This document shows, one piece after another, positions 3,725-44,261 of a DNA stretch of 44,261 nucleotides (position 1 is its first letter; each line of letters starts with the position of its first letter). The translations under genes were made by a program, and so were the position numbers. Origin of the DNA: a virus; IMG/VR virus record IMGVR_UViG_3300045988_061436, positions 1-44,261 of that record; one strand, written 5' to 3'. The notes beneath the pieces were generated by a model that was not told the DNA's origin, did not search any database, and saw only the letters and a program-made list of their open reading frames with translations.

Positions 3725-4837
3725 CTAAACCGCCTTTGTTGATACCGGGTTGCTTGCTCCGTTGGTAATGACAACCGGGTTGGCGGTTGGAATGTCTCCA
3801 ACAGGGTTGGCAATAGCAAACTTGATGATTGGGTTTGCAATTGTTGCCGGTGCGCTGTTGTAAGCCACCAAGAAACAAACGTCAAGGCTGAATCCGTAAA
3901 ACTCCTTAACTGCACAAGTCAAGTCAGCGGTCGCAGTTCCTGCAATTGCGCTCTGATTGCCCACCTCTGTGTAGAAGTGCGCACCAACAGGCAAATCAAG
4001 CATTGGCAGGCGCACAACGTCCCACTCGTGCGAGTTTGCGGTCGCTCTGCGCAACGCTTCACGGTCTACACGTGTAACGACTGCACAATTGCCGTCCTCA
4101 ACCACGAAACCGGTCGCAAACTTGCCGCTCTCGTTCGCTACTGAATTGGTGTAGTGCAGAATCTTGCCCTCGTACTCCAATCGCCTGTTCTGCTCGTTGT
4201 ACACGCCCATCTGTGCAAGCTGCCGTACGTGTGCATCGACACCGCTGTTGCCGATTACGTGCAACTCTCGATAGAACTTGTTTGCCCTCATCATTGGTGC
4301 GCTATCGCCCAAGATACTGTTACGGAGCAGCCATGGCACGTTTACAACGTTGCCGGTCTGCTTGTAGTAGAGCAAGTTCTGAAACACCTGTGTCTTGTTC
4401 GCTTCCAATGAAGCAACGGCGTAGGAGTCCAACTTCTCCAACAGCGCACGGGTAATGTTTGCCATTTTGCGGTTGAAATCTCTCTCGTAACCGATAGAGT
4501 TGTTCATGTACGCAGACGGCACCATCGTGAAGCCTACCGCAAGCGTTGCCCAAGTCAAAGTATATAACTTTGAGGTGTTCTCTGCATCTGCAATGACACA
4601 ACTACGCTCGTTTGCCACCACTACATCGCCGTTGTAATCAAGAACCGGCACCTTTACATCGTTGCCCATGCTCTGAAACGCTTTGTCTCGTAATTCGGGC
4701 GAAATAATTGAGGTCGGTGCATCTGTCTGTGAGATAAAGAAGTCAATTGCTCCGTACTCACCCATACGGACCATATTACGGTCGAAAGTCGGGTCACTGA
4801 TACGCCAATCCTGCACTCGTGTTGCTACTAATGACAT
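3725..4837 (-). CDS. Major capsid protein (candidate)
   Basis: 370 aa. It follows a coiled-coil scaffold-like gene and the portal, and is followed by the strongest terminator in the genome. Call rests on position and size. Confidence 0.65.
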   Translation of the reverse strand: MSLVATRVQDWRISDPTFDRNMVRMGEYGAIDFFISQTDAPTSIISPELRDKAFQSMGNDVKVPVLDYNGDVVVANERSCVIADAENTSKLYTLTWATLAVGFTMVPSAYMNNSIGYERDFNRKMANITRALLEKLDSYAVASLEANKTQVFQNLLYYKQTGNVVNVPWLLRNSILGDSAPMMRANKFYRELHVIGNSGVDAHVRQLAQMGVYNEQNRRLEYEGKILHYTNSVANESGKFATGFVVEDGNCAVVTRVDREALRRATANSHEWDVVRLPMLDLPVGAHFYTEVGNQSAIAGTATADLTCAVKEFYGFSLDVCFLVAYNSAPATIANPIIKFAIANPVGDIPTANPVVITNGASNPVSTKAV

Positions 4838-4894
4838 AATTTAATTAATTTTGATATGTTATTATTTAGGGCTAACCCTTTGCCCGGTTAATTC

Positions 4895-5842
4895 TTACTG
4901 AAGCGGTAAGGATTTGTAACCCTCGTTCGCTTTGACAATCTCCTGCATTGCGGTGTCAAACTCTGCCGAGCCGATTGTCTTGCCCTGCTGCAATAGAGAT
5001 TGAGTTGCAATCTCGTTGAACTCTTTTCGGGTACGTGCGGATGAAACGTCAACAACGACACCGCCACCGTTACCGCCTGTTGGCTGTACAGGCTGCGTGC
5101 CTGCTCCCGGTGCCGCCTTGCCTGCTAATACGCCCAACGCTTCCAGCTCTCGCTCCACCAATTCACGTGCCGTGAAAGGCTGCAAGTTGGTAGCCGCATT
5201 TCTCATCACGCTGTTGTCTGAATTGTGGAAACCCAACACCTTGCCGCCCTTGCCGTCGTCAATGAATTGAGGGTTGAAACCCTTTACCTTTTCAACAGCC
5301 TGCTGCATAAGCACCTTTGTCACGCTCTCCGGCAACTCCGGCTTGAACTTGATACCCGCCAATGAGTTGTTAATCTCATTGTCGACACGCACACCAAATA
5401 TCTGCGTTTCGTACTCTGCCTTTTGCTTCTCGCTCTGCTTCTTCAAACTTGCGTACTCTTTTCGTACGTTCTCCAAGTCTGCTTTTGCTCGTGCGAGTTG
5501 CGCCTGCGTTTCCTCGTTGCCGCCCTTTGCGACCAAACCCTCCAAACGTGTCTTCTCTGCTTTCAGCGTTGCGATTTCCTCCGTGTACTTGCTTGCTCCG
5601 TCTTTCTGCTTCAACTCCGTTGCAGCACGCTTCAAGAAATTGTAAGTCTTTTCGTCTCCGTCACGCTTAACGCCGGTAACGTTTGTAATCGTTTCGTCCA
5701 TCGTGCGGTAGACTTCGCCAATCCTGCGGCCGATAACATCGTTCTCATCGTTTTGGCTCATCTGCACCAATGCGGCAACCTGCTTGTCGTTCAAGCCTGC
5801 TAACTCCGCATTACCTCTAATTGTTTCTTTCGTTAATGCCAT
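4895..5842 (-). CDS. Scaffolding protein (candidate)
   Basis: 315 aa with a long Lys/Glu/Ala-rich coiled-coil centre (KAEKTRLEGL...KADLENVRKEYASLKKQSEKQKAEYE). Lies between portal and capsid. Confidence 0.55.
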   Translation of the reverse strand: MALTKETIRGNAELAGLNDKQVAALVQMSQNDENDVIGRRIGEVYRTMDETITNVTGVKRDGDEKTYNFLKRAATELKQKDGASKYTEEIATLKAEKTRLEGLVAKGGNEETQAQLARAKADLENVRKEYASLKKQSEKQKAEYETQIFGVRVDNEINNSLAGIKFKPELPESVTKVLMQQAVEKVKGFNPQFIDDGKGGKVLGFHNSDNSVMRNAATNLQPFTARELVERELEALGVLAGKAAPGAGTQPVQPTGGNGGGVVVDVSSARTRKEFNEIATQSLLQQGKTIGSAEFDTAMQEIVKANEGYKSLPLQ

Positions 5843-8210: not shown

Positions 8211-8852
8211 TTACACGTTCTTCAAGTCTGTAAGCGGGTTGTAATCATCGGGCGTAATGATTACAAAGTCATCACTCCAATTAGGCAAGAACGACCAGTT
8301 AACACTGTTGTTGTCGGGGTTCTCGAAGCCGCCCAAACCCTTATCGCCGATAAACAGGTTGCGAATTGGAATTGGAGAAACATTGCCCGCTTCGTCTTTC
8401 AAAGCACCGATAGCCCCGTCCTCGTTGATGAGGTAAACACCCAAATTGAACACGTCTGCTTCACAAGACAAATATTTCATTGCCTTGATTTGCGCCTGCG
8501 GTGCGTTACGGATAACAGACGTGAATGCGGTCGGCTCTCGACCGATTGTCATCTCGATACCTCCCAACGTGTCGTTACCACCTCCAAAGGTGCGAGCCTT
8601 GCCCGGTTCTGCTGACGGTGCCTGCAAGTAAGGTGAGATAACCATCTTCGAACTATCTGCCGCCGCAAACAAAGGCGTAATGCTGGCAAGTTTGGTAATT
8701 GGTTTGCTTGAGGCAAACACGTTCTTTGCACCGTCGTCTTTGCGCAACCTCTGAAAGATTACTTTCTGCAACTGTCCGAAACCCTCCGAGCAAGTTGCCG
8801 CCGGGATAGTTTTGAGTGCAGCTAAGCCCGGACACTGACAAAATTTTGACAT
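8211..8852 (-). CDS. Virion structural protein, first gene of the late operon (possible major tail or head-associated protein)
   Basis: 213 aa. First ORF after a TATATTTG promoter box and a structured leader. No motif recognised. Confidence 0.55.
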   Translation of the reverse strand: MSKFCQCPGLAALKTIPAATCSEGFGQLQKVIFQRLRKDDGAKNVFASSKPITKLASITPLFAAADSSKMVISPYLQAPSAEPGKARTFGGGNDTLGGIEMTIGREPTAFTSVIRNAPQAQIKAMKYLSCEADVFNLGVYLINEDGAIGALKDEAGNVSPIPIRNLFIGDKGLGGFENPDNNSVNWSFLPNWSDDFVIITPDDYNPLTDLKNV

Positions 8853-11533: not shown

Positions 11534-12862
11534 CTATTTCTTCAACTCTCTTATAATTGCTTTTTCTTTCTCTGTTAATTCCCATTCATGGGTTACAACA
11601 ATTCCCTCCCTTTCTTCTGCTTCTGCCCTTTCTTCTGCTTCTGCCCTTTCTTCTGCTTCTGCCCTTTCTTCTGCTTTATAGTCGGGGATAAGGTAGCCAC
11701 TTCCAAAGATAGACTTGCCCAACTCTTTCTGACTTTCCAAGCCGTCTATCCTATGTGTTTCGCTCACCTCTGCTTCAAACTCTACCCCGTACCTCGATAG
11801 CTTTGCAAGTGCTGCCGCTGTCATTACGTTAATAGGGTACGTGTACTTTGGTAGCTGCTTCTTAATCTCTTTGAGGTTCTTATCATTCTCTGCCTTAATT
11901 ACCTTGTATAACTTCGGTACAGACCTAAACCGCACACTTCCGTTTAGGTTGGTTACAAATGATGTGTTAACGTTTGCCCCGTTCTCATACGTAACAGTTA
12001 CGCCCAAACTTATTGCCGTGAAATCTTGTGATGATGAGAATAACGTGAGAGTAGGTGCAAACAAAAAGAAATTAATGTCTTTCTCCTTGTAAAATCGCAT
12101 TATCTCTGCTAATATAGAGAAAGGCGGGTTATCAAGTACAACGCAACCCTTTGGATAGTCAAAGTGTTTGTAATCTCCACCCGGATAGAAAGGACGTACA
12201 ATGTCCTTGCGCTTTATCTTATATTCAGATATACACCAATCAACCACCGCATCGTAAATATTTTGTGGCGTATAACAATCATCGGTCGTTTTCTTTGGTT
12301 TGAACTTCTCCACAAAGGCAAGATATTCCTCATCGGTTTCGTCTATTTCTCCGCTTTCCAACTTCTTGCGAAATTCACGCATACCCTTTTCGTACTCCTC
12401 ACGCTCTTTGCGTTCTTGTTCCTCTTTGCCTATCGTCTTATCCCAACTTTCGGGCAAAGCCACGTCCCATTCTTTAAGCTCGTTTACATTCCACTCTCGG
12501 GCAACCTTTTCCCAATCTACCGAGCCTTTGATGTCGTTGTCTAACATTGCCATACGTCGCAACTTCTCAACGGGTGTGTCTTGTGGCAACAAAATAACGG
12601 GTATTAACTCTTTGCCCAACTGCTTCTGCGCCTTAACTCGTCCGTTTCCTCCAATAGCCACGTACTTACCATTAAGCGGGAACACCATTGCAGCACGTGC
12701 GACAGTCATTTCGGGCAACGCTTCAACACTTTTGCGCAACTCTGCTTCCTGCTCCTCTGTACGTATCATGTAGTTTTCGGGTACGCCCTCGATTTGCCCC
12801 TCGTTGTACTCTACAAGATTAGCGGGTACAAATTTTATTTCTATATCTCCGGTTTCTTTCAT
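11534..12862 (-). CDS. ParB-like nuclease domain fused to an N6-adenine-type DNA methyltransferase
   Basis: 442 aa. The N-terminal region is ParB/Srx-like (IAIGGNGRVKAQKQLG). Motif IV is DNPPFS. The C-terminus carries an (AEAEER)n repeat. Confidence 0.65.
   Translation of the reverse strand: MKETGDIEIKFVPANLVEYNEGQIEGVPENYMIRTEEQEAELRKSVEALPEMTVARAAMVFPLNGKYVAIGGNGRVKAQKQLGKELIPVILLPQDTPVEKLRRMAMLDNDIKGSVDWEKVAREWNVNELKEWDVALPESWDKTIGKEEQERKEREEYEKGMREFRKKLESGEIDETDEEYLAFVEKFKPKKTTDDCYTPQNIYDAVVDWCISEYKIKRKDIVRPFYPGGDYKHFDYPKGCVVLDNPPFSILAEIMRFYKEKDINFFLFAPTLTLFSSSQDFTAISLGVTVTYENGANVNTSFVTNLNGSVRFRSVPKLYKVIKAENDKNLKEIKKQLPKYTYPINVMTAAALAKLSRYGVEFEAEVSETHRIDGLESQKELGKSIFGSGYLIPDYKAEERAEAEERAEAEERAEAEEREGIVVTHEWELTEKEKAIIRELKK
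11608..11676. repeat. 18-bp tandem repeat, about 3.8 copies, in-frame inside the ParB/MTase gene
   Basis: ccctttcttctgcttctg occurs three times exactly (11608, 11626, 11644) plus a partial fourth copy. It encodes AEERAEAEERAEAEERAEAEERE. Confidence 0.95.
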
Positions 12863-14883: not shown

Positions 14884-15363
14884 TTAAAATGGAAAATCGT
14901 CTTCCTCCTTATTAGGCGATACAGTGCCGTTCCATTGCTCTGTCTGTTGTGGTGCTGCCGCCTGCGTTCTGTTAATTACGCCTTTCGGTGCTGCTGTTGG
15001 TTGTGGTGGCGGTGGTGCTGCCGTTTTTGGTTTTGGTGTCAACAACTCCATACGTGAAGCGTATATCTCCGTTACATAGCGTTTTATTTTCGCTTCGTCC
15101 TCATACGAACGGTAACGCAACTTTCCCTCTATGTAGAGTTTATCGCCCTTATGTACGAACTTCTCCGCTACGTCTGCAAGTGAGTTAAACAGCGCAATAT
15201 TGTGCCACTCTGTACGCTCCGGCACGGTTGTGCCGTCTTTTCTCTTATACTCCGGCACTGATGTCGCCAAAGACAAAGACACCGTTTTCCCTCCATTCTC
15301 GAATGTGTAAACCTTTGGGTCTCCTCCTACGTTACCCAAAAGTGTAACCCTATTTATTGCCAT
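14884..15363 (-). CDS. ssb: Single-stranded DNA-binding protein
   Basis: MAINRVTLLGNVGGDPKV OB-fold start, a Pro/Ala/Gln linker, and the canonical acidic tip EEDDFPF. Confidence 0.95.
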   Translation of the reverse strand: MAINRVTLLGNVGGDPKVYTFENGGKTVSLSLATSVPEYKRKDGTTVPERTEWHNIALFNSLADVAEKFVHKGDKLYIEGKLRYRSYEDEAKIKRYVTEIYASRMELLTPKPKTAAPPPPQPTAAPKGVINRTQAAAPQQTEQWNGTVSPNKEEDDFPF

Positions 15364-19441: not shown

Positions 19442-20875
19442 TTAATCTTCTGTGTACTCCTCGACTTGCATTTCCTCCTGTCCTCGCTTCACGTTCTCGA
19501 TAAAGCCTTGGAAGCCGTTTTGTTTCGCTACGTCTAAAATCGCTTTAAGACGTTTTGCGCCCAAACTCTCACCTCGTGCAATTCTGAACACCTTAACGGT
19601 TGGGTTTGCTGCAATAATTAGTTTAGTTGCGACCTCCATTTTTTGACTGTCTGATACAACACCGTCAACGAAAGGCACGTTATTGAGTGTTAACCCCTCA
19701 TCACTGAACGAAAGACCGGTAATTGGTAATTCTGATTTTTCGATAAGTTCCTTGCGCTCGTGCTGCAAAGTGTCTACCTTTTCGCCCAACTCATTGTAAC
19801 TACTTTCAACCTCTGAAAGCTGTTCAGCACGCTTGTTGTAGTCCTCAACTTGTGCCGCCTTTTCGTTGTGTACTTGCGCCTGCTTGATTTCTTCTGTAAC
19901 GTCTACGTCCTCTTTGTTTTTCTCGTATTCTTGCAGCCACTTCTCACAATTTGCCTTACGTCTTTCTGCTTCCTCCAGTTCTCGGTCGTACTGCTCAATA
20001 TCGTTATTGTAACGTTCCTCTGCGTCTGAACGCTCGGACTTTGCTACGCTTACTTTGCGGTCGTACTCTGCTTTTGCGGCTTCGACTGCCAACTCGTAAT
20101 CTCTTTTTGCGTCTTTCAAAACGTTGTCGATACGCTCGACTTCCTCGTGGAAAATTCGTGCGCTCTCTTTCTGCTTTGCCGGCACCGCTTCAATCTGTGA
20201 GATACGTTCCTCTAATTTTTGCTGTACGTTTTGCGCCTTTGCGTCTAATTGCGCACGCACGTTTTGACGCTCCAACAACTCGGTAACTTCAATGCGACTG
20301 CCGTACTTGGTAATGTCGCCCGGCTGCAAACCCTCTTTAGCTGCCTTAACTTGCGCCCCCAAATTCTTAATATCTCGGTTAAGGTGTGTTCGTTCCTCCT
20401 TTGCTGCCTTAACCTCTGCGTCTATCTCCTCAATGCGTTTCTGCACCTCCTTTGGCAATAGAGATTTTACAACCTCTATCTGCTTGCGTCTGCCCTCTGC
20501 TGTTTCTGACCAACTGCAAAAGTCGACAGCGTCAAAGTTTTGGTAGCCGAAAAGTTGTTGCAACATTGAAACGTTGTTACTTTGTACCGTCTTGCCCTTA
20601 ATGCTTAAAACTCCACGTGGGTTTGCTTTCGTGAAATTAAGTGATACGGTGTACTCGTTGCCGTCGTCACCGACAACCATTTTGGCAAAGCCTTTTTCTT
20701 CTCCATTGCGCAAAACTGCGTCACGCTCTCCGGTAAGCAAAGCACCGATAGCTTTCAAAAGGGTTGATTTGCCCAACTCATTGTCACCAGTTATAAAATA
20801 AACGTTACCGGTAAAGTCTGCGCTAAACTCCTTGATTACTTGGAAATTTAGCAATTCCAATTTTTTAATATACAT
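19442..20875 (-). CDS. AAA/SMC-like ATPase with a long coiled coil (Rad50/RecN/SbcC-like)
   Basis: 477 aa. Walker A is GDNELGKST; the central ~250 aa are a Glu/Lys/Ala-rich coiled coil, followed by a C-terminal globular part. Confidence 0.65.
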   Translation of the reverse strand: MYIKKLELLNFQVIKEFSADFTGNVYFITGDNELGKSTLLKAIGALLTGERDAVLRNGEEKGFAKMVVGDDGNEYTVSLNFTKANPRGVLSIKGKTVQSNNVSMLQQLFGYQNFDAVDFCSWSETAEGRRKQIEVVKSLLPKEVQKRIEEIDAEVKAAKEERTHLNRDIKNLGAQVKAAKEGLQPGDITKYGSRIEVTELLERQNVRAQLDAKAQNVQQKLEERISQIEAVPAKQKESARIFHEEVERIDNVLKDAKRDYELAVEAAKAEYDRKVSVAKSERSDAEERYNNDIEQYDRELEEAERRKANCEKWLQEYEKNKEDVDVTEEIKQAQVHNEKAAQVEDYNKRAEQLSEVESSYNELGEKVDTLQHERKELIEKSELPITGLSFSDEGLTLNNVPFVDGVVSDSQKMEVATKLIIAANPTVKVFRIARGESLGAKRLKAILDVAKQNGFQGFIENVKRGQEEMQVEEYTED

Positions 20876-26160: not shown

Positions 26161-26191
26161 CAAATGTAGCAAATTATTTTATACAAACAAA
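26161..26191 (-). promoter_or_regulatory. Promoter (TTTG-N19-TACATTTG)
   Basis: caaatgta at 26161..26168 and caaa at 26188..26191 on the plus strand. It lies directly after the stop of gene 26200..26934. Confidence 0.65.
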
Positions 26192-29283: not shown

Positions 29284-29299
29284 ACGTTTACTTTGTTAG

Positions 29300-29318
29300 G
29301 CGGGGCAAAACGCCCCGC
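29300..29318 (-). promoter_or_regulatory. Intergenic GC hairpin, same family
   Basis: gcggggc-aaaac-gccccgc, lying between stop 29326 and ATG 29283. Confidence 0.6.
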
Positions 29319-29325
29319 ACATTGT

Positions 29326-29791: not shown

Positions 29792-29898
29792 ACAAAAAGC
29801 ATATTTTTTTTAATTTTCTACGTATTTTTTTCAAAATACCCCTTTTTCTGCGTAATTTTGCAACACGCAATACCTTTTCGCTCTCGGTTTATTGCGTT

Positions 29899-29935
29899 AC
29901 GCCCGGCAATGTGCTAATATACACACGCCGGGCGT
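29899..29935 (-). promoter_or_regulatory. GC hairpin after gene 29940..30476
   Basis: ACGCCCGGC-N19-GCCGGGCGT (9 bp). Confidence 0.5.
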
Positions 29936-31139: not shown

Positions 31140-31164
31140 ACCGGGAAACCGCTCGGTCGGGTTC
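31140..31164 (-). promoter_or_regulatory. Fourth (promoter-less) copy of the leader ACCGAC/CGGTTT hairpin motif
   Basis: Minus strand reads GAACCCGACCGAGCGGTTTCCCGGT, lying between stop 31165 and ATG 31119. Confidence 0.5.
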
Positions 31165-31398
31165 TTATTTCATTGTGTATTTACTCAATCTTTCAATATC
31201 TCTTTTTAATCTCCTTGCTCGTTGTTCCTCAACTTCTGCAAACTCGTTGTTTCCTATGCTTCTGTTAAACTCTGCTACTTCAATAGCGTTTGTTAATGCT
31301 TTTTCTTTTACTGAAAGAATGTACTCTATTTCTGTAAGATTGCCGTTATTGATAACTTGTGTAATCATATCAGCCTGTAATGTTGTTGTTACTTCCAT
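31165..31398 (-). CDS. Hypothetical protein
   Basis: 77-aa ORF. Confidence 0.55.
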   Translation of the reverse strand: MEVTTTLQADMITQVINNGNLTEIEYILSVKEKALTNAIEVAEFNRSIGNNEFAEVEEQRARRLKRDIERLSKYTMK

Positions 31399-31971: not shown

Positions 31972-32011
31972 CAGAGTAACCGCCCTGTCGGTTGTGTTGT
32001 TTCCTTAACAC
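31972..32011 (-). promoter_or_regulatory. Conserved structured 5' leader, copy 3
   Basis: Minus strand has GTGTT-AAGGAAAC-AACAC followed by ACCGAC and CAGGG-CGGTTA-CTCTG. Confidence 0.6.
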
Positions 32012-32015
32012 GTTG

Positions 32016-32046
32016 CAAAGATAGCACTTTTATTTTAAGTACCAAA
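32016..32046 (-). promoter_or_regulatory. Early promoter P3 (TTTG-N19-TATCTTTG)
   Basis: caaagata at 32016..32023 and caaa at 32043..32046 on the plus strand. Nearly identical to P1 over about 85 nt. Confidence 0.75.
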
Positions 32047-32132
32047 ACTTTTAGTTATAATATTCTCGTTTTTAATAGATTTTAACCAAAACAAATAATT
32101 TAAGCGGTATAATTAGTTATTTTGGAAAGTTT

Positions 32133-32206
32133 TTGCGTCTAACGGCTTTTTATTGCTCTAAGGTGTAGTTATTAGGTTGAGATAAAAACAAAGCCGTGTC
32201 GGGCGT
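32133..32206. repeat. Module-boundary element, copy D
   Basis: TTGCGTCTAACGGCTT at 32133..32148 and AAGCCGTGTCGGGCG at 32191..32205 (start-to-start 58 bp). Confidence 0.85.
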
Positions 32207-32211
32207 TAAAA

Positions 32212-32255
32212 TGCGAAAACGAAAAAAGCGGGGGTATCTCACGACACGCCCGCTT
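32212..32255 (-). terminator. Intrinsic terminator ending the tail/lysis transcription unit
   Basis: Minus strand reads AAGCGGG-N16-CCCGCTT followed by TTTTTCGTTTTCG, 30 nt after stop 32285. Confidence 0.75.
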
Positions 32256-32284
32256 CGATTTACATAAACATTATTGCAGTACAT

Positions 32285-32923
32285 TCATCTAATTATGCTA
32301 ATAAACTCAACATCTGTTATAACCGTGTTTGGATTTAAGCTAATAGCGTCTATCTTTCTACTTTTTACCTTGTGAGTACGCCAAAACAAAAAACGCTTAT
32401 ACTTCACGGTTTCTATAATCTTTATTTTGTCATAGGTTTTAAGCAAGCCGTCAAAGCCGCCTATACTATTAATACAACCGTCAAGCGTGTACCACTTATC
32501 CGACACGTGCAAACATTTCAAAGTATCTACTTTATAAACCGTATCGCCCGGCAAGTATATAATACTATCCCTTATTTGCGTTTTGATACGTGTAACGGTT
32601 TGCGTTGTCATACTTGACACGCTGCCTACGTCTTTACTCTTTGCGCTTAACTTCTTTATAAGGCTTGCGTCCTCCGCTCTGTACCTCTTTAAGTCGTCAA
32701 CAGTGAGAGAAAGACCACGTACACGCACAGCGTTAAGGCTGTCGTCTACCTTGTACCGCTCTACATCTTGCATAAGCACACCTACGTTTGCCCGTTGTGC
32801 TGCTTCTCTGTCTTTGTAGTGGCTTGCTTTGTTCCAACCTATACAATTAGCCACCACTAAACCGACAAAGGCTATAAGCGCAAATAAATACGCATAGCGT
32901 TTAATTTTCAAGAACCAACTCAT
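32285..32923 (-). CDS. N-terminally membrane-anchored protein, last gene of the lysis cassette (spanin-like by position)
   Basis: 212 aa with a single TM near the N-terminus (YAYLFALIAFVGLVVANCIGW). Directly downstream of the amidase. Confidence 0.5.
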   Translation of the reverse strand: MSWFLKIKRYAYLFALIAFVGLVVANCIGWNKASHYKDREAAQRANVGVLMQDVERYKVDDSLNAVRVRGLSLTVDDLKRYRAEDASLIKKLSAKSKDVGSVSSMTTQTVTRIKTQIRDSIIYLPGDTVYKVDTLKCLHVSDKWYTLDGCINSIGGFDGLLKTYDKIKIIETVKYKRFLFWRTHKVKSRKIDAISLNPNTVITDVEFISIIR

Positions 32924-32926
32924 ACG

Positions 32927-33454
32927 CTACTTCTTTATAAAGTGTTTATACTCGGGAATTGCGTTAAAGCACGGACACGCCTTTAAGTACTCATAGGGTT
33001 CTATTACACCGTTGCCGTTTTTGTCGGGACTGAAATCTCGGTGTCCTGCTATCTTCTGAACGCTTGGAAATCTCCCTGCTAATTGAGAGATAAGCCACAA
33101 AAGGGACTCTTTTTGCGCCGGTGTGCGTGTGTCCTCGTCCTTGCCTTGTGCGTTCAAGCCACCGGCGTAACAAATTCCTATACTGTTTGAGTTCCACCCC
33201 TGCACGTGTGCGCCTACCTCGTTAAGCGTGCGACCGACCTCGATTGTGCCGTCTTGTGCGACAACAAAATGATAACCGCAATAGTGACCGCTTTCGCTCT
33301 GACGGCTAAACCCTCGTGCCTTGTGCCATTTGTCTATCGCTTCAACGTCTGCAACCACGCCCGGGCGTGTCGCTGAACAATGTACGATTAAGTACTTTAT
33401 ATCTCTACTACATTTTTGCGTCTTGATGTACGCTTCTAATTCTTTTCTATTCAT
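32927..33454 (-). CDS. N-acetylmuramoyl-L-alanine amidase (Amidase_2/PGRP, T7-lysozyme type) endolysin
   Basis: 175 aa. LIVHCSAT, GYHFVV, AGHRDF and KACPCF fit the His/His/Cys zinc-ligand pattern. Confidence 0.85.
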   Translation of the reverse strand: MNRKELEAYIKTQKCSRDIKYLIVHCSATRPGVVADVEAIDKWHKARGFSRQSESGHYCGYHFVVAQDGTIEVGRTLNEVGAHVQGWNSNSIGICYAGGLNAQGKDEDTRTPAQKESLLWLISQLAGRFPSVQKIAGHRDFSPDKNGNGVIEPYEYLKACPCFNAIPEYKHFIKK

Positions 33455-33456
33455 AA

Positions 33457-33975
33457 CTATTTTACATTATCTTTGTTATCAACTCCTACGTCCTCGGGGT
33501 GTTCTCTCTCGTAACGTTCGATTATCTCCCTTACATTCTCGGGCAATGCTCGGGTAAACTCTAAGCGTATAACGTGGTAAAGGATATGAAATACCATACG
33601 GCGGGGGTACGCTATAACTAAGTTGCGAAACGCATTCTGCAAGTACACGTACTCAAAGATATAACTTAATGTTTTAACCACTAACAAAGAAGCGTCTTTG
33701 TCATCTTGCAAACTCATTACAGAGTAAACAACGTATATAATCGCTATATACAGAAAGAACTCACTTAAAGCGTTTTTGAACTTGGAAAACTTAAAGCGTT
33801 GACAACGCTTAATCGCTACCCCGTCCGCTCTCATACCTGCCCAAATGTTGAAACCGAAAACAATAGTTAAGGCGTAAATATATGAGTTTGTAGCGGTATA
33901 GTAAGCAAGCACCGGCGAAAGGGTGCTTACTACTATAAGCCTGCTTTGTTCTAACGTTATTAATCTATCTAACAT
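33457..33975 (-). CDS. Multi-pass membrane protein (holin candidate)
   Basis: 172 aa with 3 to 4 hydrophobic helices and a charged C-terminus. Immediately upstream of the endolysin. Confidence 0.5.
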   Translation of the reverse strand: MLDRLITLEQSRLIVVSTLSPVLAYYTATNSYIYALTIVFGFNIWAGMRADGVAIKRCQRFKFSKFKNALSEFFLYIAIIYVVYSVMSLQDDKDASLLVVKTLSYIFEYVYLQNAFRNLVIAYPRRMVFHILYHVIRLEFTRALPENVREIIERYEREHPEDVGVDNKDNVK

Positions 33976-33976
33976 T

Positions 33977-34426
33977 TTACAACAAAAGATTTATATATAT
34001 CAACAAAAATGCTAACACTTCACCGACATAGTAAGGCTTTGGAAATTTCAGAACTTTATACCCAAACCAAAGAACAACGGCAAAGGCTACTAATATAGGG
34101 TTGAAAGTCGCTACCCACAGCACACCACAAATTAAAGCCGTCAACGCTCCTATTGAGTGCATTTTCTCTATCTTGTAATGTGGTTCAATCGCTACCAATG
34201 CAAGACCAAACACGGCAAACAACGCTAAAAAACCAAAGTTACCGCCTTTCTCTAACATCGGGGGCAAAAGTAAAGCACCAACAACACCAATTACAAACGA
34301 AAATAACCACGATTGCCGCCCTATGTAGTAGTTATCACTTACAAAGTTTTTAACGCCGTACTTAACACCCATTACAGAGAGATAAGAAAGCATTATAACG
34401 GCACTAATCAAAACTAATATTGTCAT
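33977..34426 (-). CDS. Four-helix membrane protein (second holin/antiholin candidate)
   Basis: 149 aa, almost entirely hydrophobic helices. Confidence 0.45.
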   Translation of the reverse strand: MTILVLISAVIMLSYLSVMGVKYGVKNFVSDNYYIGRQSWLFSFVIGVVGALLLPPMLEKGGNFGFLALFAVFGLALVAIEPHYKIEKMHSIGALTALICGVLWVATFNPILVAFAVVLWFGYKVLKFPKPYYVGEVLAFLLIYINLLL

Positions 34427-34428
34427 AA

Positions 34429-34947: not shown

Positions 34948-34952
34948 ATCAT

Positions 34953-37102: not shown

Positions 37103-37107
37103 AATCT

Positions 37108-37977: not shown

Positions 37978-40465
37978 ACTTTAACGTTGCTTTAATCATT
38001 CGACTTGACAAATTTACAGATAATTTTTCAATTTGCCCCTCTCCTAATAGAGTTTTTACCAACTTTTGCGGGTGTGGTTCTCTGTCGCCTGCCGGAAACG
38101 ACAAAATTTGTTTTTTCTTTCTGTCCGTACCTCGTGCGATAGTACGTCTTTTGTTTATCTCAACCACGCTTGCCGGCAAGTCGTAAACATAGTAATTCGA
38201 TTGCGCAAAGGCAAACGACACATAGCCGTTTTGCAAATCATACGTAACACCGTCAATCTCTGTCTGATAAAACGGCAATTCTCGCAAATTATCCTCAACC
38301 CATATCCCAGCTATACTTACATCGTTATAACCGTTCATATTAAAGGTTAAGTACTTGCATCCGGTAGGCATTACAAACGTTACATTTTGCTCATAATCTT
38401 GTGCTGTTAACGTCATAACATCTGTGTAGCCGTTATCTTTGTACACTCGTATGTTTGCCGTATTGCCTGCATTGGTTGTCCCGCTATGTCGCCTTAACGT
38501 TACACGCATACTTACACGCTTGCCGCCTACCGGCTTTAACTCCCATTGATTGTCAACCTCTCCGCCGTCCTTTGAGTACCACTCCGCAAAGTATGAAAAA
38601 CGGTTTGTAAACAAAGCCGTTGCCGGTACGGTTGCCAATAGCGCAAAACCGTCCTTGCTCATACCGCCCGGGTTTAGCAGCATAAGGTCTATATCGCTTG
38701 AAAAATTACCCACGTTCACGTCCTCTATCTTGCCTTTGGTTACGTAATTACTCTTTACCTCGATAGGATAGCCGTCAAAGGCTTGTGTGCAATCGTCCAT
38801 CCATGCGAATTGATAATGCTCTGACATATCCGCTTTATCAAACGTATATTCTGTTTTTGCAAAACTCCACGCCTTACCGTTACGCACGTTAAACAGCTTT
38901 GTTAAATCGTAATCAACCTCCGGCTCTCTATTATAAGACATGCCGTTGTTAAAATAGCTTACGTGTTCTATATGTAGTTTTTTGTTCTCGTCAATATACC
39001 AATAGCAACGAAACACGTCACGCAACATATTAAAGATATTTTGAAGCGTACAAATAGCCCTTTTTGCGGGTTCTTGATACTCACCTGTCAAGATGTTACT
39101 CTTCTGTGTTATAAATAGGCGTTGTTTAATTTTGCTTATCGGGTTATTTTCTGCATACAGAAACTTTGAACCGTTTTCGTTGCTGTCAAATGTAACGTCA
39201 CTGAATTGCTTTAACAGCACATTTATACAGCTGCCTAATTCGTACGCATCACGCAATAGGTAGCTTGTGCGCCCCTCGTACTCTGCCCACTCGTCTTCAA
39301 ACTTAAAGTAAAACCACACAGAAGCCGTTAACCACGTACTTTTGGCAACAGGGAAAAACTTTCCAGCACCCGTCATATATGGCATTTGAAAATAACGCCC
39401 GTCGTCACGCTTGCCGTACTCTGTTGCCTTGTCTGTGCTGTCAAGACTGACAACTATATTGCCCATTTTGTAGCCTATACCGTATTTGTAATTGCGGTTG
39501 TTATCGACTAAGTCCTCCGCCGGTATATCATACGTGTTTAGGTTGCTTATCTTTGGTTTGTCAAGCAACAAGCGCATAAATATCCGTATAACATTAACGT
39601 ATGCTTTTGCGTAACCTGTGCCGCCGTTAAAATCTATCAATACGTACTCATTGCTTTTGTCTGTCGCATTACCCACAATTACCGAATAGCCCTTATTACC
39701 ACGTGACACTACGATTGAACCCGTAGCAGCATGATGTGCCGTTTCCTTTATTTCTGTTATAGTTACTATGTAGTTTGTATCGTCTTTCCTTTTACACGTG
39801 TACACGGTTCTGTCGCCACTCTCAACGGCTTCATCGCCCACGTACACACCATTATAAGCCGGGTCGGTTGCTTCTGTTATGCTTACTTCTACCGCCTTAT
39901 GTGCTAAAGCAAAATGATACTTATTTATCATTTTATCCGCATTATCGCACGCCTCTGACACGTCTTGCTCCCAATTAGACCCGGAAAGGAAACACGATAC
40001 AACTTTATCGCCTAACTTGTACACTTGTATAAGCGGGCGTTTGGTAATTAACACGCTATCAACTTCGGGTGCTAACTCGATAAGATTGTACTCTTTTTCC
40101 ATACCCGCCAACACGTCTGTATAAGCGTCAATAGTTGACGGCTGTACGGTTATACTCTTATCTGTTGGGTCTATTGTGCAATCTGTGCGCATGAACTTTC
40201 CCTCCCAATAGTTGTACCACGACCGCCCTAAATCGTATGAAATCTTAACTACAAGCATATAAATAGTATCAAATTGCGCACCCATAATTAGGTCGTAATC
40301 TGAACGCAAAAAGGTAAACTTACCGTTTAACTTTGCACGAAAAAAACGGTTACTTGCTTCTTTCTCATAATCAAGCGTTACATCGTCTTTATAAATAGGA
40401 TTGACAGGGGTTTCTGCCCCTGTCTTTCCTAAACGCAAATAGAATTTATAAATAGGATTTATCAT
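37961..40465 (-). CDS. Large distal tail / baseplate hub protein
   Basis: 834 aa. Its ATG overlaps the tape-measure stop by 1 nt (TAATG). Call is by position immediately after the tape measure. Confidence 0.6.
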   Translation of the reverse strand: MINPIYKFYLRLGKTGAETPVNPIYKDDVTLDYEKEASNRFFRAKLNGKFTFLRSDYDLIMGAQFDTIYMLVVKISYDLGRSWYNYWEGKFMRTDCTIDPTDKSITVQPSTIDAYTDVLAGMEKEYNLIELAPEVDSVLITKRPLIQVYKLGDKVVSCFLSGSNWEQDVSEACDNADKMINKYHFALAHKAVEVSITEATDPAYNGVYVGDEAVESGDRTVYTCKRKDDTNYIVTITEIKETAHHAATGSIVVSRGNKGYSVIVGNATDKSNEYVLIDFNGGTGYAKAYVNVIRIFMRLLLDKPKISNLNTYDIPAEDLVDNNRNYKYGIGYKMGNIVVSLDSTDKATEYGKRDDGRYFQMPYMTGAGKFFPVAKSTWLTASVWFYFKFEDEWAEYEGRTSYLLRDAYELGSCINVLLKQFSDVTFDSNENGSKFLYAENNPISKIKQRLFITQKSNILTGEYQEPAKRAICTLQNIFNMLRDVFRCYWYIDENKKLHIEHVSYFNNGMSYNREPEVDYDLTKLFNVRNGKAWSFAKTEYTFDKADMSEHYQFAWMDDCTQAFDGYPIEVKSNYVTKGKIEDVNVGNFSSDIDLMLLNPGGMSKDGFALLATVPATALFTNRFSYFAEWYSKDGGEVDNQWELKPVGGKRVSMRVTLRRHSGTTNAGNTANIRVYKDNGYTDVMTLTAQDYEQNVTFVMPTGCKYLTFNMNGYNDVSIAGIWVEDNLRELPFYQTEIDGVTYDLQNGYVSFAFAQSNYYVYDLPASVVEINKRRTIARGTDRKKKQILSFPAGDREPHPQKLVKTLLGEGQIEKLSVNLSSRMIKATLKYDTEQ

Positions 40466-43400
40466 TACTTCTTAATTTTACGTGTTAAATTCTTATATTC
40501 TACAATCGTGTTGCCCTCTGCATCGTGGTACATCTTGCGTTCGTTTTGTTCTCTGATACTACGCACATTATCGGTTAACTCTGTAAGGTCGTTGTCGTTC
40601 TGTTTAACGTTAACCTCTAAGCCACCACCCGCAAACGTGCCGGCGTACTTATCTTCAAACGTGCCACGATTAAGCGACTTGATAACATCTGGTATTAAGC
40701 GGCGGTAACGTCTTGAATTGCGCTTGTTGATAACCGCAAAAAATTCGCCACCCTCTGCACGCCTTTTCGTGCCGTCTTTCTTTGTACCTAAGTCTACATC
40801 ATCGCCACTTTGGTGCGAACCACCCTCGAGCAACTCAACTGTACCCTCTCCGTAAGTTTCTTTGTCTTGTGCTTTCGCTGCTTGTGACGCTTTAATCTTT
40901 GCAAAGGCAAACGAACCCCACATAATTGCGATTGCAGGAATTGCCCAAGGGAAACCCAACTGCGACCAAATCATTGACGTTGCGGTTACAAGGTTGCCTA
41001 TCTGCTGCAACGTTTGGATAGCTGCCTGCGCTTTCTGTGCTTTCTGTTGCTCCTTTAACGCCTTTTCTTGGTTACGCTTTGCAAGGTCTAATTCCTTTTG
41101 TGCGTATGTAACGTTTGAAGCGTACCCATTTGCACGTGCTTCACGCTCGCTATCTAACACCTTTTGCGCATTTGCTACACGGTTATCCGCTCTCTTTACC
41201 TCTGCTTCTGCTGCTGCCACTTCTGCCTGCGTCCACGCATTCAAAGCGTCCATAGCATACTGTAAGGAGGTATCAATCGCTTCCTTTTGCCCGTCTGTCA
41301 AGTTCAAGCCTAACAACTGATACAAGTCTTTGCGCTCGTCTTTTTTGCTCTGCCCTATTTCTTGGTCTATCTTCTTAATCGTGTTAAGTATAGTTTGAAC
41401 CTCAATGTCAGACAACTTCGTGCCGGCTTGCTCGTTTAGTTGCAATATCTTTTTTAATCGCTCTTTTTCTGCCTGCAATCTGTAACGGGTCTTTTTCTCC
41501 TCTGTTGTCTGTAATAGTTGAAATTCGCTATCTGCTAAAGCCTGCTGTTGGTCAAATATAGCTAATTGCGCTTTGATATACTCGTCAGCAATACCGCTCT
41601 TTTTTGCGTCATACTTTGCGTTAATATCGCTTTCGCTCTGTCGCTCGTCTTTTGGCTTTGCCGTGTTCTCTCTTAACGCCTGCTTTCGTTCGATTTCGAT
41701 TTGTTCAAGTTTTAGCTGCCTTTCTTGCTCGCTACCTTTGGCAACGGCTTCCAAACGTAATTTAATTGCGTCCGCTTGAATTTTAAGCATATCGTCCTCG
41801 TGTTTGCGCTCCATTTCTTCAAGTACTTGCGCTTTCTTTTGCTGCAAACTTGCAATAGTACTTGTTATGTCGTTGCGCCTTTGAACCTCTGTCGCTTTAA
41901 GCAACTTTAGCGAGTGTGTCAAGTCCTCAACCTGCCTATCATAGTGTACTTGCGTGCGCTTGCGCTGCTTCTCGTACCCCTCTTCCATTAAGTCGATTTT
42001 TGCGTCCTCTGCCTTGCGTCTTGCGTCTAAGTCTGCTTTATAGGCTGCTTCTGCTGCTCGTGCTGCCTTTTCTGCTTCCTTTAACGGGTCTTTTTCTTTC
42101 TTCTTCTTTTGCTTTTTCTCCTTTTTCTTTTTGCCCTCGATAGGTGTATAAGCGGTTGACGCTTTCGGTTGCTCGGTTATCTCCTCCGCATCTGTGTGCG
42201 TTGGTAGAGATATTTCTTTAATGTGTCCACCGCTTGCCGTTTGGTTTATACCCTCGATAAAGGCGTTGCCAATAGCTTTACCGGACGTGAACACGTCTTT
42301 CATAACCTCGTCACCGCCTGCCTTTATTGCCTTACCAAAAGACGTTAACGCATTTTTGAAACCATTTGTAACGCTGTTCTTAATCTCTGTTACGCCTTTC
42401 TTTACCCTTTCAAAGTCAAAAGCGGCTATACCTGCCAACGCTTCGCCAAAGCCTGACAAAGCACCGGTAACAGCTTTGAAACCACCGTGAACGGTACTTA
42501 CAAAAGCGTCTATAACTCGTCCTAAGTTCTTAAAGCCGTCTATTATCAGATTAAAGGCAAGTTTGACAACCTCCCAAAGTATCTTAAATTGCGTTACAAT
42601 GTTAGCAACACCGGCACGAAATACGATTGAATTGTTATAGAGTTTTATAAACCAATTCGCCAAATCTATGCACCCTTTTACAACGGCAATCATCCACTTT
42701 GTAGCCGTCAACTTTAAGTTATCAATAACACCCTCAAAGCCTTTGTCGGTAACGTCAAATAAAGCACTCATCGCATCGTTAAGTTCTGCGGTTGCCTTTA
42801 TCTGTGCCGTTTGTGCTTCGCCCCACTCTCCTGTCTGCTTCTTTACCTCCTCTAAGTTGGTAGACATCGTGTCGAGTTGTTCGATTAGCTTAATACCTGC
42901 GTCCGCTCCATTCTTACCGAAAACGTTTTTAAGCACTAAACCGACTTGTTGGCTATCTGCGCCAAATTCTTTCATTTTAGTGCTTATCTCTTGGATAACG
43001 TCAAATGTGCTACGTGCGCCCGTTGCTAAATCTCTTTGTACGTCCTTAACGTTTACGCCTATACTCAAAAGTGCTTCTTGCGTGTTCGTACCCATTTCAC
43101 GAATACGTTTTGAAGCCATTGTAATAATATCAAGACCTTTGTCGCTAAAGATACCGCTTCGTGTCTGCTGCAAGATAGCCACCATTTGAGACGCTCCAAT
43201 GCCTGCATCATGGAAAACCGGTGCATAACGCTTTATCTTATCCAACATATCGCCGGAAAGGTCTGCACCACTTGCGAAGCCGTCCGCAACGACCTTTGTC
43301 GCCTGCTGTGCGGTTATGCCATAATTAGCCATTAAAGCGTCAACGGTTGACAAAGTGTCTTTGTAGTCGTGTCCCATTACGTCCGCACACGCTTGTATCT

Positions 43401-44261
43401 CATTACGCACGCTTATAAGTTCATCGCCTGCCAAGCCGGTAAACTCTTTGGTTAATCGTGTCGCTTCTGCTAAGCCTGCATTATAATCGTACCACCACTT
43501 AAAAGCCGCCCCGGCTGCTGCTACGCCTGCAATAGCCAAAAACACTGGGTTTGCCATTAACGTCATAAGTGAAGCACCCAACGCTTTCACGCCGTCACCG
43601 ATTGCGCCCAACGCTGCCTTTGCTCCTCCTCCGTTCTGTGCCAAACTGATAAAAGACTGACCGAACTTGTTGTTAAGTCCCAATACCTCGGTAATCTTGC
43701 TTTGGTAGCCGCTTATACCGTCACTAATAGCGTTTAACTGTGCGCTATAATCTCCATAATTACCCACGTTAAGCTGGTGCTTGCCGGTTTCAGCCTGCAA
43801 ACGCTTCATTTCTTCATATATAGCCGCCGTTTGCTTTACAAGTCGCTTTCCCTCCTCTGTCTGCTCCCTCTCTGCCTTTGTCATGTTGTTGAGGTAGATT
43901 TTATTTATTGAGTATTGAGCGGAAAGTTTGTTGTAACTGCCCTCTGCTGATTGCGCTAACTTAACGTTGAGTTTGTTTAACTCGTTGGCTTCTTTGGTTG
44001 CCTGCTTTAACTCTGCTATCTTTTTAGCGGTTTCGCTCTCTGCAAATGCGGTTTCACGGTACGCCCTCGCCAATTTGTCTGCATCGTCTGACGCTTTGCG
44101 TGTTGCCTGCCTGCCCTCCTCGGTTGCACCGCTCACACTCTTTAACACCGTTGTAAGCTGTATCGCTTCGCCTTTGATGTTCTTGAGTGTGTTCATATAT
44201 GTATCAGACAACTCGTCTAACTGCTTTATAAGGTCGGTTATAGAGTTGTCGGGCGAAACTA
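40465..44261 (-). CDS. Tape measure protein (main body; the 5' end wraps to 92..56)
   Basis: About 1277 aa in total. Long coiled coils, a hydrophobic Gly/Ala stretch (LMANPVFLAIAGVAAAGAAF) and a Lys-rich KKKKEKKQKKKKEK. It is the largest gene and lies upstream of the baseplate genes. Confidence 0.85.
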   Translation of the reverse strand, partial: VSPDNSITDLIKQLDELSDTYMNTLKNIKGEAIQLTTVLKSVSGATEEGRQATRKASDDADKLARAYRETAFAESETAKKIAELKQATKEANELNKLNVKLAQSAEGSYNKLSAQYSINKIYLNNMTKAEREQTEEGKRLVKQTAAIYEEMKRLQAETGKHQLNVGNYGDYSAQLNAISDGISGYQSKITEVLGLNNKFGQSFISLAQNGGGAKAALGAIGDGVKALGASLMTLMANPVFLAIAGVAAAGAAFKWWYDYNAGLAEATRLTKEFTGLAGDELISVRNEIQACADVMGHDYKDTLSTVDALMANYGITAQQATKVVADGFASGADLSGDMLDKIKRYAPVFHDAGIGASQMVAILQQTRSGIFSDKGLDIITMASKRIREMGTNTQEALLSIGVNVKDVQRDLATGARSTFDVIQEISTKMKEFGADSQQVGLVLKNVFGKNGADAGIKLIEQLDTMSTNLEEVKKQTGEWGEAQTAQIKATAELNDAMSALFDVTDKGFEGVIDNLKLTATKWMIAVVKGCIDLANWFIKLYNNSIVFRAGVANIVTQFKILWEVVKLAFNLIIDGFKNLGRVIDAFVSTVHGGFKAVTGALSGFGEALAGIAAFDFERVKKGVTEIKNSVTNGFKNALTSFGKAIKAGGDEVMKDVFTSGKAIGNAFIEGINQTASGGHIKEISLPTHTDAEEITEQPKASTAYTPIEGKKKKEKKQKKKKEKDPLKEAEKAARAAEAAYKADLDARRKAEDAKIDLMEEGYEKQRKRTQVHYDRQVEDLTHSLKLLKATEVQRRNDITSTIASLQQKKAQVLEEMERKHEDDMLKIQADAIKLRLEAVAKGSEQERQLKLEQIEIERKQALRENTAKPKDERQSESDINAKYDAKKSGIADEYIKAQLAIFDQQQALADSEFQLLQTTEEKKTRYRLQAEKERLKKILQLNEQAGTKLSDIEVQTILNTIKKIDQEIGQSKKDERKDLYQLLGLNLTDGQKEAIDTSLQYAMDALNAWTQAEVAAAEAEVKRADNRVANAQKVLDSEREARANGYASNVTYAQKELDLAKRNQEKALKEQQKAQKAQAAIQTLQQIGNLVTATSMIWSQLGFPWAIPAIAIMWGSFAFAKIKASQAAKAQDKETYGEGTVELLEGGSHQSGDDVDLGTKKDGTKRRAEGGEFFAVINKRNSRRYRRLIPDVIKSLNRGTFEDKYAGTFAGGGLEVNVKQNDNDLTELTDNVRSIREQNERKMYHDAEGNTIVEYKNLTRKIKK
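44207..44261. repeat. Right copy of the 55-bp terminal duplication
   Basis: Identical to 1..55. Confidence 0.95.

Follow-up and report, generated by a model that had tools for sequence, protein, structure and literature searches.

The leader pseudoknot of gene 32 in phages T4, T2 and T6 is said to be a compact H-type fold in a phage 5' leader, with a single-A loop 1 and an unstructured A/U-rich stretch running to the start codon. It is reportedly autoregulatory and present in one copy about 40-70 nt from the AUG, before the phage's own single-stranded DNA-binding protein (SSB) gene, with a stem 2 of 6-7 bp and a loop 2 of 7 nt. The sites putL/putR of HK022 and nutL/nutR of lambda are repeated leader RNA elements of phage early operons: put measures about 70 nt with two nested stem-loops, nut combines boxA with a boxB hairpin, and putL is said to differ from putR by pair-preserving changes. 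The PeSL cassettes of T4 are reportedly repeated modules of promoter and structure before unrelated small early genes, in which a stem-loop seen as a recombination substrate or terminator precedes the promoter. The smallest known riboswitch pseudoknot, preQ1-I (RF00522), is a very small H-type fold in the 5' untranslated region (UTR) beside an A-rich tract. In Escherichia coli the rpsO pseudoknot controlled by S15 and the thrS operator are reportedly structures just 5' of the start region that work on the 30S platform, trapping, blocking or recruiting the ribosome; each autoregulates a single gene and takes in the Shine-Dalgarno (SD) sequence and the AUG. Pseudoknot ligands are said to have been selected in vitro for ribosomal protein S1. 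The Bacteroidota are dominant gut bacteria that do without SD pairing, and almost no cis-regulatory RNA structures of their phages are known. Here we describe a unit of 20-21 nt with two interleaved helices, probably a small H-type pseudoknot, from IMG/VR virus record IMGVR_UViG_3300045988_061436 (positions 1 to 44,261; this whole stretch of 44,261 nucleotides is referred to as the window), where it follows three predicted promoters (P1, P2 and P3) ahead of replication and recombination genes and recurs at a fourth, promoter-less site.

The unit consists, in strand order, of S1a (3 nt), L1 (1 nt), S2a (5 nt), S1b (3 nt), L3 (3-4 nt) and S2b (5 nt), so that helices S1 and S2 interleave as in an H-type topology. 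Each of the systems compared fails to share at least one tested defining feature with it, and we regard the element as a structured, probably cis-acting leader RNA of phage mRNAs. Compared with the gene 32 pseudoknot it has no sequence similarity, occurs in 3-6 copies per genome before unrelated genes, has a stem 2 of 5 bp, a stem 1 of 3 bp and an L3 of 3-4 nt, ends 16-24 nt from the AUG, and agrees with the CPK1 geometry in the 1-nt loop 1 only; the 200-nt gap (15364-15563) upstream of the window's own SSB gene (14884..15363) holds no copy of the motif. Its copies within one genome differ by pair-preserving changes as putL and putR do, but the fold is interleaved and 20 nt long, keeps a fixed distance from start codons, recurs after stop codons, and has no U-tract terminators seen downstream in the early operons; on direct reading, GCTCTT or a related sequence (boxA, consensus approximately CGCUCUUUA) was found in none of the three leaders. 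In contrast to the rpsO and thrS sites it is multi-copy and phage-borne and lies wholly upstream of an SD-less start; its likeness to leaders that bind the ribosome or S1 is one of position and fold. It differs from preQ1-I in its mirrored helix order (the short helix is 5' here), in missing the ligand-pocket nucleotides, and in having helices that overlap neither the start region nor a terminator. Unlike the PeSL stem-loops it follows the promoter, would be transcribed, covaries as RNA and also occurs promoter-less. A scan of the whole window against Rfam 15, which the sequence-only reading of this DNA had proposed, gave zero matches at gathering thresholds, and the P1 region at E <= 10 gave four unrelated weak matches only (sR52, CRISPR-DR22, EGFOA-assoc-1, ST7-OT4_3). 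We found no prior description of the element in the literature.

That the two helices represent a selected RNA structure is, judging from comparative data, very probable. We aligned 38 distinct copies from the window and related phages (structure ..[[[.(((((]]]...)))))...), which are homologous by position and flanks. The relatives were collected through the SbcC-like ATPase gene (19442..20875), which gave 34 loci on contigs of ~42-46 kb with 45-98% protein identity; the exonuclease gene used as locus anchor returned close relatives only. Some 30 related genomes, of phages of about 44 kb, carry the unit. MAFFT misplaced gaps in four copies with a 4-nt L3, and one unpaired L3 nucleotide was deleted from each in order to hold the register. 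Paired cells amount to 99.3%, compared with 71.4 +/- 1.7% in column shuffles and 26-52% in slid registers. S2 is 5 bp long in every copy and paired in 190/190 cells (three of them G-U), with at most five pair types per position and a helix-junction pair that is invariably G-C. The inner three pairs of S1 are formed in 112 of 114 cells (98.2%), with the pair types CG/AU/UA/GC/GU, CG/UA/UG and GC/CG/UA at the three positions. Two-sided changes are found at seven of the eight pairs (3/3 in S1, 4/5 in S2); the alignment has 81 compensatory cells and a covariation score of 0.751, for which shuffles give 21 and 0.201. At least 13 distinct S2 stems occur, while S1 takes the states CCG/CGG, CUG/CGG, CUG/CAG, ACG/CGU, UUG/CAA, GCG/CGC, CUC/GAG, CCC/GGG and CCU/AGG. 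One orthologous leader even displays a stepwise path, from CCG/CGG (L252:9509) through the wobble intermediate CUG/CGG (L248:9518) to CUG/CAG (L245:9518). Among non-Watson-Crick cells G.U outnumbers A.C by 14 to 2, which points to RNA of the sense strand. As for the unpaired positions, L1 is A in 31 copies, G in six and C in one, and L3 is mostly UUU, UUA or GUA.

About 50 of the 61 distinct TTTGG-type promoter leaders in the relatives carry the motif, with the same architecture in different sequences, against a chance expectation of ~2% per promoter (our own estimate, from the shuffle frequency of the descriptor). The generic pseudoknot descriptor itself is not rare, matching 50 times in the window compared with 33 +/- 5.5 times in shuffles, and 150 times in sense against 109 times in antisense orientation in the relatives; being so common in shuffles, it was dropped as stand-alone evidence.

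These results change the picture drawn by the sequence-only reading, which had described a two-hairpin leader with an invariant ACCGAC between the hairpins and had taken the pair-preserving differences in the second stem as a sign of functional RNA. Its three-copy signal holds strongly in the larger alignment, and the hairpins, the ACCGAC, the stems and the loops are all present on the minus strand as described. In ACCGAC, however, S1a and L1 are followed by the opening base of S2a, and the loop CGGUU(U)A is made up of S1b plus L3; rather than sequence-recognition elements, the two supply the strands of the covarying helix S1. Hairpin 1, present in the two closest clades only and lacking covariation, falls outside the unit, which is S1 plus S2.

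The same reading had noted an alternative pairing AACCG/CGGUU, thought to exclude the second hairpin. This pairing is present as 5 bp in P1 and P3, but P2 has CCG/CGG only, and across the alignment the inner 3 bp alone are conserved, the outer two positions being only 62% Watson-Crick. Mutual exclusivity probably does not hold, as the pairing is too weak against hairpin 2 in most members and its inner 3 bp fit a pseudoknot. Loop spans taken from ideal A-form phosphate coordinates indicate that an L3 of 3 nt can cross a 3-bp S1 (18.8 Å, feasible), whereas 2 nt over a 4-bp S1 (21.8 Å) and 1 nt over a 5-bp S1 (25.7 Å) are not feasible. By this geometry the conserved part of S1 would be exactly the part able to coexist with S2, and a pseudoknot is favoured over a switch. 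Energies point the same way: most members have an S1 of -0.5 to -4 kcal/mol by itself, compared with -5 to -10.5 kcal/mol for S2, so that it would be no competing hairpin there, and it is nonetheless maintained, an indirect hint that the two helices may form simultaneously. An H-type pseudoknot is therefore likely, with a confidence clearly below that for the helices themselves.

The portal protein encoded in the window is 61-63% identical to those of the cultured siphoviruses Elizabethkingia phage TCUEAP2, Bacteroides phages C1_85S2P and BKO1-3, Parabacteroides phages PDS1 and PD491P1, and Alistipes phage AS73P1. The motif is found in PDS1, AS73P1 and TCUEAP2 and, by sequence, in BKO1-3, C1_85S2P and PD491P1, mostly within unannotated intergenic DNA; in the GenBank entries of these phages, BKO1-3 excepted, no annotated feature covers the copy that matches best. 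Its range thus covers phages of Bacteroidales and Flavobacteriales hosts, with at least six cultured phage-host pairs. It is absent from Bacteroides fragilis phage BF695P2, whose portal is 50% identical and which marks the edge of the motif-bearing phage family. Exact-pattern scans of IMG/VR and of metagenomes recovered near-identical phages whose leaders are of the same three types, nothing else being found in the metagenome scan; among GTDB representative genomes the scan gave chance matches in unrelated phyla only, with no prophage or host, and no GenBank phage matched the 13-kb early region by megablast. In PDS1 (L272, MN929097) a consensus promoter, a pseudoknot with a 7-nt spacer and an ATG lie at 4546-4620, inside the annotated coding sequence gp_11 (4430..5050), which is either mis-called or hides an internal start. 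TAnnTTTG boxes of this phage are located near 1900, 4580 and 10405.

Spacer sequences vary from clade to clade, yet almost every copy has 16-24 nt between the end of S2b and the ATG. The spacer is A-rich and unstructured, and its length is about that of the commonest Bacteroides 5' UTR, which is 23 nt in Bacteroides thetaiotaomicron, where enrichment of A at -3, -6 and from -11 to -15 is correlated with translation (PMC7366714). A subclass with a 7-nt spacer has CUC/GAG, CCC/GGG or CCU/AGG as S1, and there is a single outlier of 43 nt (L252:2645). Promoter-less copies lie 3-6 nt past stop codons, with coding sequence upstream, in the window (31160..31141, a copy overlooked by the sequence-only reading), in PDS1 (2211), in AS73P1 (11351) and in seven clade C genomes (L253:793, L254:671, L257:1530, L258:1704, L264:1303, L267:520, L270:1302), where they separate gene 1 from gene 2 in the first early operon. 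The window's promoter-less copy precedes a gene for a 216-aa DUF3560 protein (Pfam), and a close relative has a perfect CCGGG/CCCGG at the same place (L244:100). Since promoter-less copies exist and the spacing to the ATG is kept, the motif appears linked to start codons rather than to promoters, and a device that controls all early operons from the transcription start, as had been suggested, is not the best reading. A read-through or frameshift stimulator was also considered for the internal copies and rejected: the frame past the upstream stop closes after ~10 codons, and the promoter-proximal copies have no upstream open reading frame (ORF).

The explanation that fits these observations best, though we see the chances for and against it as evenly balanced, is a small early-mRNA fold of pseudoknot topology tied to translation start and mRNA protection. 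Its functional part, a cis-acting mRNA element that aids translation start and shields the 5' end, is put forward slightly more tentatively. The element would act in cis on SD-less messages, where the ribosome landing zone begins on its 5' side; there the fold would mark or dock the 30S subunit at the A-rich start region and help early-gene translation. It would also hide the 5' end, or the fresh 5' end left by cleavage, from 5'-end-dependent decay of the RNase G type; Bacteroidetes have been reported to lack RNase J and RNase E and to possess RNase G, RNase Y and PNPase (bioRxiv 10.1101/2021.04.08.439066). In the window's lineage an additional 5'-terminal hairpin 1 would stand in front. Tiny, multi-copy and heavily covarying, the element offers a testable handle on translation initiation and mRNA stability in Bacteroidota and a candidate portable part for expression engineering in Bacteroides.

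Several points weigh against this explanation. Both the label "early" and the position of +1 are predictions, and the sequence data point to no particular partner, whether ribosome, protein S1, RNase or phage protein. The 1-nt L1 must bridge 12.7 Å over a 5-bp S2, a strained span, compared with a favourable 10.0-10.4 Å over 6-7 bp. Nuclear magnetic resonance studies of T2 gene 32 variants reportedly failed to confirm pseudoknots that combine a 5-bp stem 2 with a 1-nt loop 1. In view of this strain and that report, the fold may be strained, bent or partly formed. In the window's clade S1 (taken as 5 bp) and S2 are isoenergetic, and nested minimum free energy folding favours hairpin 1 plus S1, not hairpin 2; in this clade a switch is conceivable. 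The 7-nt spacer subclass and the 43-nt case fit no single docking distance. The sequence set was partly picked by a structural filter, and two homologous copies that break S1 were restored to it (L254:2288, L266:3126). Finally, single-sequence folding of the leaders is non-significant (z -1.5 to -1.9); because of this, and because the generic descriptor is not rare, it is repetition, position and comparative data that carry the case, and thermodynamics does not.

A more specific proposal, which we regard as doubtful, is that the pseudoknot is a stand-in for the SD sequence that docks on the 30S subunit of Bacteroidota, in which the anti-SD is sequestered, through the platform or protein S1, and places the ribosome on the A-rich start ~20 nt downstream. 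If this were true, early messages, including their internal cistrons, would gain privileged SD-independent initiation in hosts from Bacteroidales to Flavobacteriales.

A translational operator has a somewhat smaller chance again. Here a phage or host RNA-binding protein would recognise the fold (its shape, the A of L1, the U-rich L3) and block the 30S subunit, so that many early genes would be jointly shut off later, in the manner of T4 RegA, gp32, or S15 on rpsO. The several copies per genome, confined to the early/replication module and near start codons, are in keeping with such a site, but its 3' edge at -16 to -24 is rather distant for simple occlusion; the 7-nt subclass would place the fold within the ribosome footprint. 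Likewise, the prevalence of A in L1 (31/38), the invariant junction G-C of S2 and the U-rich L3 are compatible with protein recognition, whereas the differences in S1/S2 within one genome (CCG/CGG and CUG/CAG in L245; ACG/CGU and CCC/GGG in L257) would demand recognition of nearly pure shape, and PHROGs and Pfam reveal no RNA-binding domain in the small early ORFs.

It is unlikely, to a degree beyond the operator, that the element is purely an mRNA stabiliser or processing boundary with no role in translation, shielding primary and cleaved 5' ends from 5'-monophosphate-dependent RNase G or from RNase Y. A plain hairpin would suffice for this, leaving the interleaved S1, the 1-nt L1 and the kept distance to the ATG unexplained. 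The element does stand at the predicted +1 or only a few nucleotides from it (the S1 region of L259:7150 begins ~3-6 nt past the -7 box, and hairpin 1 in the window at about +1/+2), yet in L266:9686 and several leaders of clade C the fold comes only after 8-15 unpaired nucleotides. Internal copies that begin right after stop codons, the other intergenic GC hairpins in the same operons and the RNase repertoire of the Bacteroidetes would all agree with stabilisation. Even if this were its only function, the element would constitute a new RNA family for Rfam, and the picture of two hairpins with an invariant linker would still be corrected.

A two-state switch, be it a small riboswitch or a co-transcriptional timer in which ligand, temperature or transcription speed chooses between S1 (3-5 bp) and S2, seems improbable. 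The hairpins of the window's clade are indeed isoenergetic (-4.9 vs -4.6, -3.2 vs -3.2 and -4.3 vs -4.6 kcal/mol), S1b is transcribed ahead of S2b, a full 5-bp S1 is incompatible with S2, and the size is like that of preQ1-I aptamers. In most family members, however, S2 is more stable than S1 by 3-8 kcal/mol and the outer S1 pairs are unconserved; there are hardly any invariant unpaired nucleotides that could form a ligand pocket, no Rfam riboswitch matches the P1 region even at E <= 10, and neither state occludes the start codon or forms a terminator.

Very improbable, too, is a role in transcription, with the fold bringing about processive antitermination through GC hairpins while still nascent, either by altering RNA polymerase or by loading a NusG-like factor, as in the leaders of HK022 put, lambda nut or LoaP/UpxY. 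The majority of copies do follow promoters closely, and strong GC hairpins occur in the operons (16346-16389, 19398-19441, 20876-20914, 29284-29325), but these lack sense-strand U-tracts and would be poor intrinsic terminators. Such a mechanism would require neither the fixed distance to start codons nor the recurrence after stop codons, the leaders have no boxA-like sequence, and 20 nt is far below the ~70 nt of put. A DNA-level origin, as overlapping palindromic operators for a phage regulator or a recombination-homogenised mobile promoter cassette like PeSL, is hardly credible, since, although promoter and leader travel as a 75-nt repeat before unrelated genes and inverted repeats could coevolve with a dimeric binding protein, the interleaved 3- and 5-bp half-sites would need two overlapping dimers, mismatches favour G.T over A.C on the sense strand only (14 to 2), promoter-less copies exist, L3 varies in length, and the arm sequences differ among copies of one genome.

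Coordinates of the element and of the features in front of it are collected in Table 1.

Table 1. Predicted promoters, hairpin 1 and copies of the conserved unit in the window, with the sequence downstream of each copy.
Feature	Coordinates	Strand	Sequence or parts	Context
Promoter P1	21461..21491	minus	TTTGgtaatataaaataaagtatTATCTTTG; -33 TTTG, N19, -7 TAnnTTTG	
Promoter P2	29761..29791	minus	TTTGgtaattaaataaaaaattaTACCTTTG; exact match to TTTG-N19-TAnnTTTG	
Promoter P3	32016..32046	minus	TTTGgtacttaaaataaaagtgcTATCTTTG; exact match to TTTG-N19-TAnnTTTG	
Hairpin 1, P1	21439..21456	minus	GUGUUAAGGAAAUAACAC	at or beside predicted 5' end
Hairpin 1, P2	29741..29756	minus	GUGUUAAGGUUAACAC	
Hairpin 1, P3	31994..32011	minus	GUGUUAAGGAAACAACAC	
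Core, P1	21416..21436	minus	S1a CCG 21436-21434; L1 A 21433; S2a CCAAG 21432-21428; S1b CGG 21427-21425; L3 UUUA 21424-21421; S2b CUUGG 21420-21416	A-rich spacer 22 nt (21415-21394); ATG 21393
Core, P2	29720..29739	minus	S1a CCG 29739-29737; L1 A 29736; S2a CUAAG 29735-29731; S1b CGG 29730-29728; L3 GUA 29727-29725; S2b CUUAG 29724-29720	spacer 19 nt; ATG 29700
Core, P3	31972..31991	minus	S1a CCG 31991-31989; L1 A 31988; S2a CAGGG 31987-31983; S1b CGG 31982-31980; L3 UUA 31979-31977; S2b CUCUG 31976-31972 (one G-U)	spacer 22 nt; ATG 31949
Fourth copy, promoter-less	31141..31160	minus	S1a CCG; L1 A; S2a CCGAG; S1b CGG; L3 UUU; S2b CCCGG; one A.C mismatch in S2	within P3 operon, 4 nt past stop of gene 31165..31398; spacer 21 nt; ATG 31119

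The promoters match the pattern TTTG-N19-TAnnTTTG, as the sequence-only reading had stated; the window holds seven matches compared with 1.34 expected, and none of 100 shuffles reaches seven. P1-P3 have the features of Bacteroidota sigma-A (sigma-ABfr) promoters, namely -33 TTTG, -7 TAnnTTTG and an AT-rich spacer of ~19 nt, in line with the published consensus -33 TTTG / -7 TAnnTTTG (PMC7366714). Because the -7 motif is centred at -7 in B. thetaiotaomicron (PMC7366714), transcription would start ~4 nt past the final G of TAnnTTTG, which would place hairpin 1, or the pseudoknot in other clades, at or near the transcript 5' end. Each promoter is followed in order by GTGTTAAGG..ACAC, (A)ACCGAC, a 5-bp hairpin, an A-rich spacer of 19-22 nt and the ATG. 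The stems are CCAAG/CTTGG with loop CGGTTTA, CTAAG/CTTAG with loop CGGGTA, and CAGGG/CTCTG with loop CGGTTA and one G-U pair. The three copies (repeat family D4) are 60-85% identical across 75 nt.

Hairpin 1 reads GUGUUAAGG..ACAC in the three leaders. It is restricted to the two closest clades; more distant relatives, L266:9686 and L259:7150 among them, keep the rest of the leader and have unrelated sequence or nothing 5' of the pseudoknot. Variants of hairpin 1 differ by a U.G wobble (GTGTTAAGGTTGACAC), by a bulged A (GTGATTAATAAACAACAC) or by a terminal A.C mismatch (ATGTTAAGG..); no compensatory change was seen among the variants in the relatives, one-sided changes or a bulge being all that occurs. 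We treat hairpin 1 as a putative lineage-specific 5'-terminal accessory.

The window represents a complete, circularly permuted phage genome of 44,206 bp, with an exact 55-bp duplication at its ends (1-55 = 44207-44261), and all candidate genes are on its minus strand. According to PHROGs, a large terminase, portal, virion structural (capsid-like) proteins, tape measure and amidase are encoded at 187-12862 and 32285-44211; the tape-measure gene (1248 aa, 40465..44211) begins just within the terminal repeat. The replication and recombination module at ~13-32 kb encodes, by PHROGs, an exonuclease, a replication initiator, a methyltransferase and a RuvC-like resolvase, and it also holds the SbcC-like ATPase, a DnaQ-like exonuclease, an HNH endonuclease and the SSB.

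A fourth consensus promoter, overlooked by the sequence-only reading, lies at 26191..26161 on the minus strand and has no pseudoknot leader. It is followed (~26068-26127, minus strand) by an 11-bp stem, CCAACCGGGGC ... GCCCCGGTTGG, and then UUUUCUUU; this element, kept in the close relatives L241:4312 and L244:4682, may be a small RNA or an attenuator in front of the gene for the replication initiator. The TTG start of that gene at 26080 is probably too far upstream, since residue 46 is where its PHROG match starts.

On the minus strand, GC-rich hairpins (7-10 bp, no U-tract) occur at 16346-16389, 19398-19441, 20876-20914, 29284-29325 and 29897-29935. The first four are intergenic, in early operons, and stop 14-17 nt short of the following ATG; the fifth lies between the final gene of the P3 operon and P2. 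Two of them (16356-16382 and 19407-19433) are repeats with 85% identity. A stable structure just 5' of a predicted A-rich landing pad is thus a recurring theme. An intrinsic terminator, GAAGCGGG..CCCGCTTTTTT, follows the last lysis/late gene (32285..32923) at 32213-32260 on the minus strand; since this one is canonical, U-tract terminators do exist in the genome, unlike the U-less hairpins of the early operons. A purine motif, (A)GAGCG(A/G/T)(A/T), stands ~5-12 nt before start codons in several otherwise different leaders and is no obvious SD sequence itself (window 20876-20890, minus strand; L253:448, L254:328, L259:7150, L262:4828, L262:16499).

A second repeat family on the minus strand, AAGCCGTTAGACGCAAAA, has four copies (97-149, 8973-9025, 12872-12924 and 32119-32171), found upstream of the tape-measure operon, gene 8211..8852 and gene 11534..12862 and just upstream of promoter P3. 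A partly complementary sequence, ACGCCCGACACGGCTTT, lies ~40 nt upstream of three of the copies (161-189, 9037-9065, 32184-32212), and these repeats may be late promoters or regulator sites. Within gene 11534..12862, which encodes a 442-aa ParB-like nuclease, an 18-bp unit, CCCTTTCTTCTGCTTCTG (plus strand), is tandemly repeated at 11608-11676.

A loose scan for promoter plus GTGTT, whose listed matches are mostly unrelated phages, was used for one side observation on 5' hairpins only. In other IMG/VR phage contigs a Bacteroidota-type promoter is followed by a 5' hairpin of the GUGUU..AACAC type, with AACAC within 2-10 nt in 18 of 106 cases among the matches listed, compared with ~2 expected; the loci include L026, L028, L032, L056, L059, L066, L078, L080, L081, L084, L098, L101, L111, L112, L117, L122, L126, L134 and others. 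In a large subclass a second hairpin follows, whose stem covaries and whose loop, CAAAGATACnAAAAA, is conserved. This loop is the reverse complement of a -7 box, with CAAA or CGAA 20 nt on, and the hairpin could be an antisense promoter or another leader RNA family.

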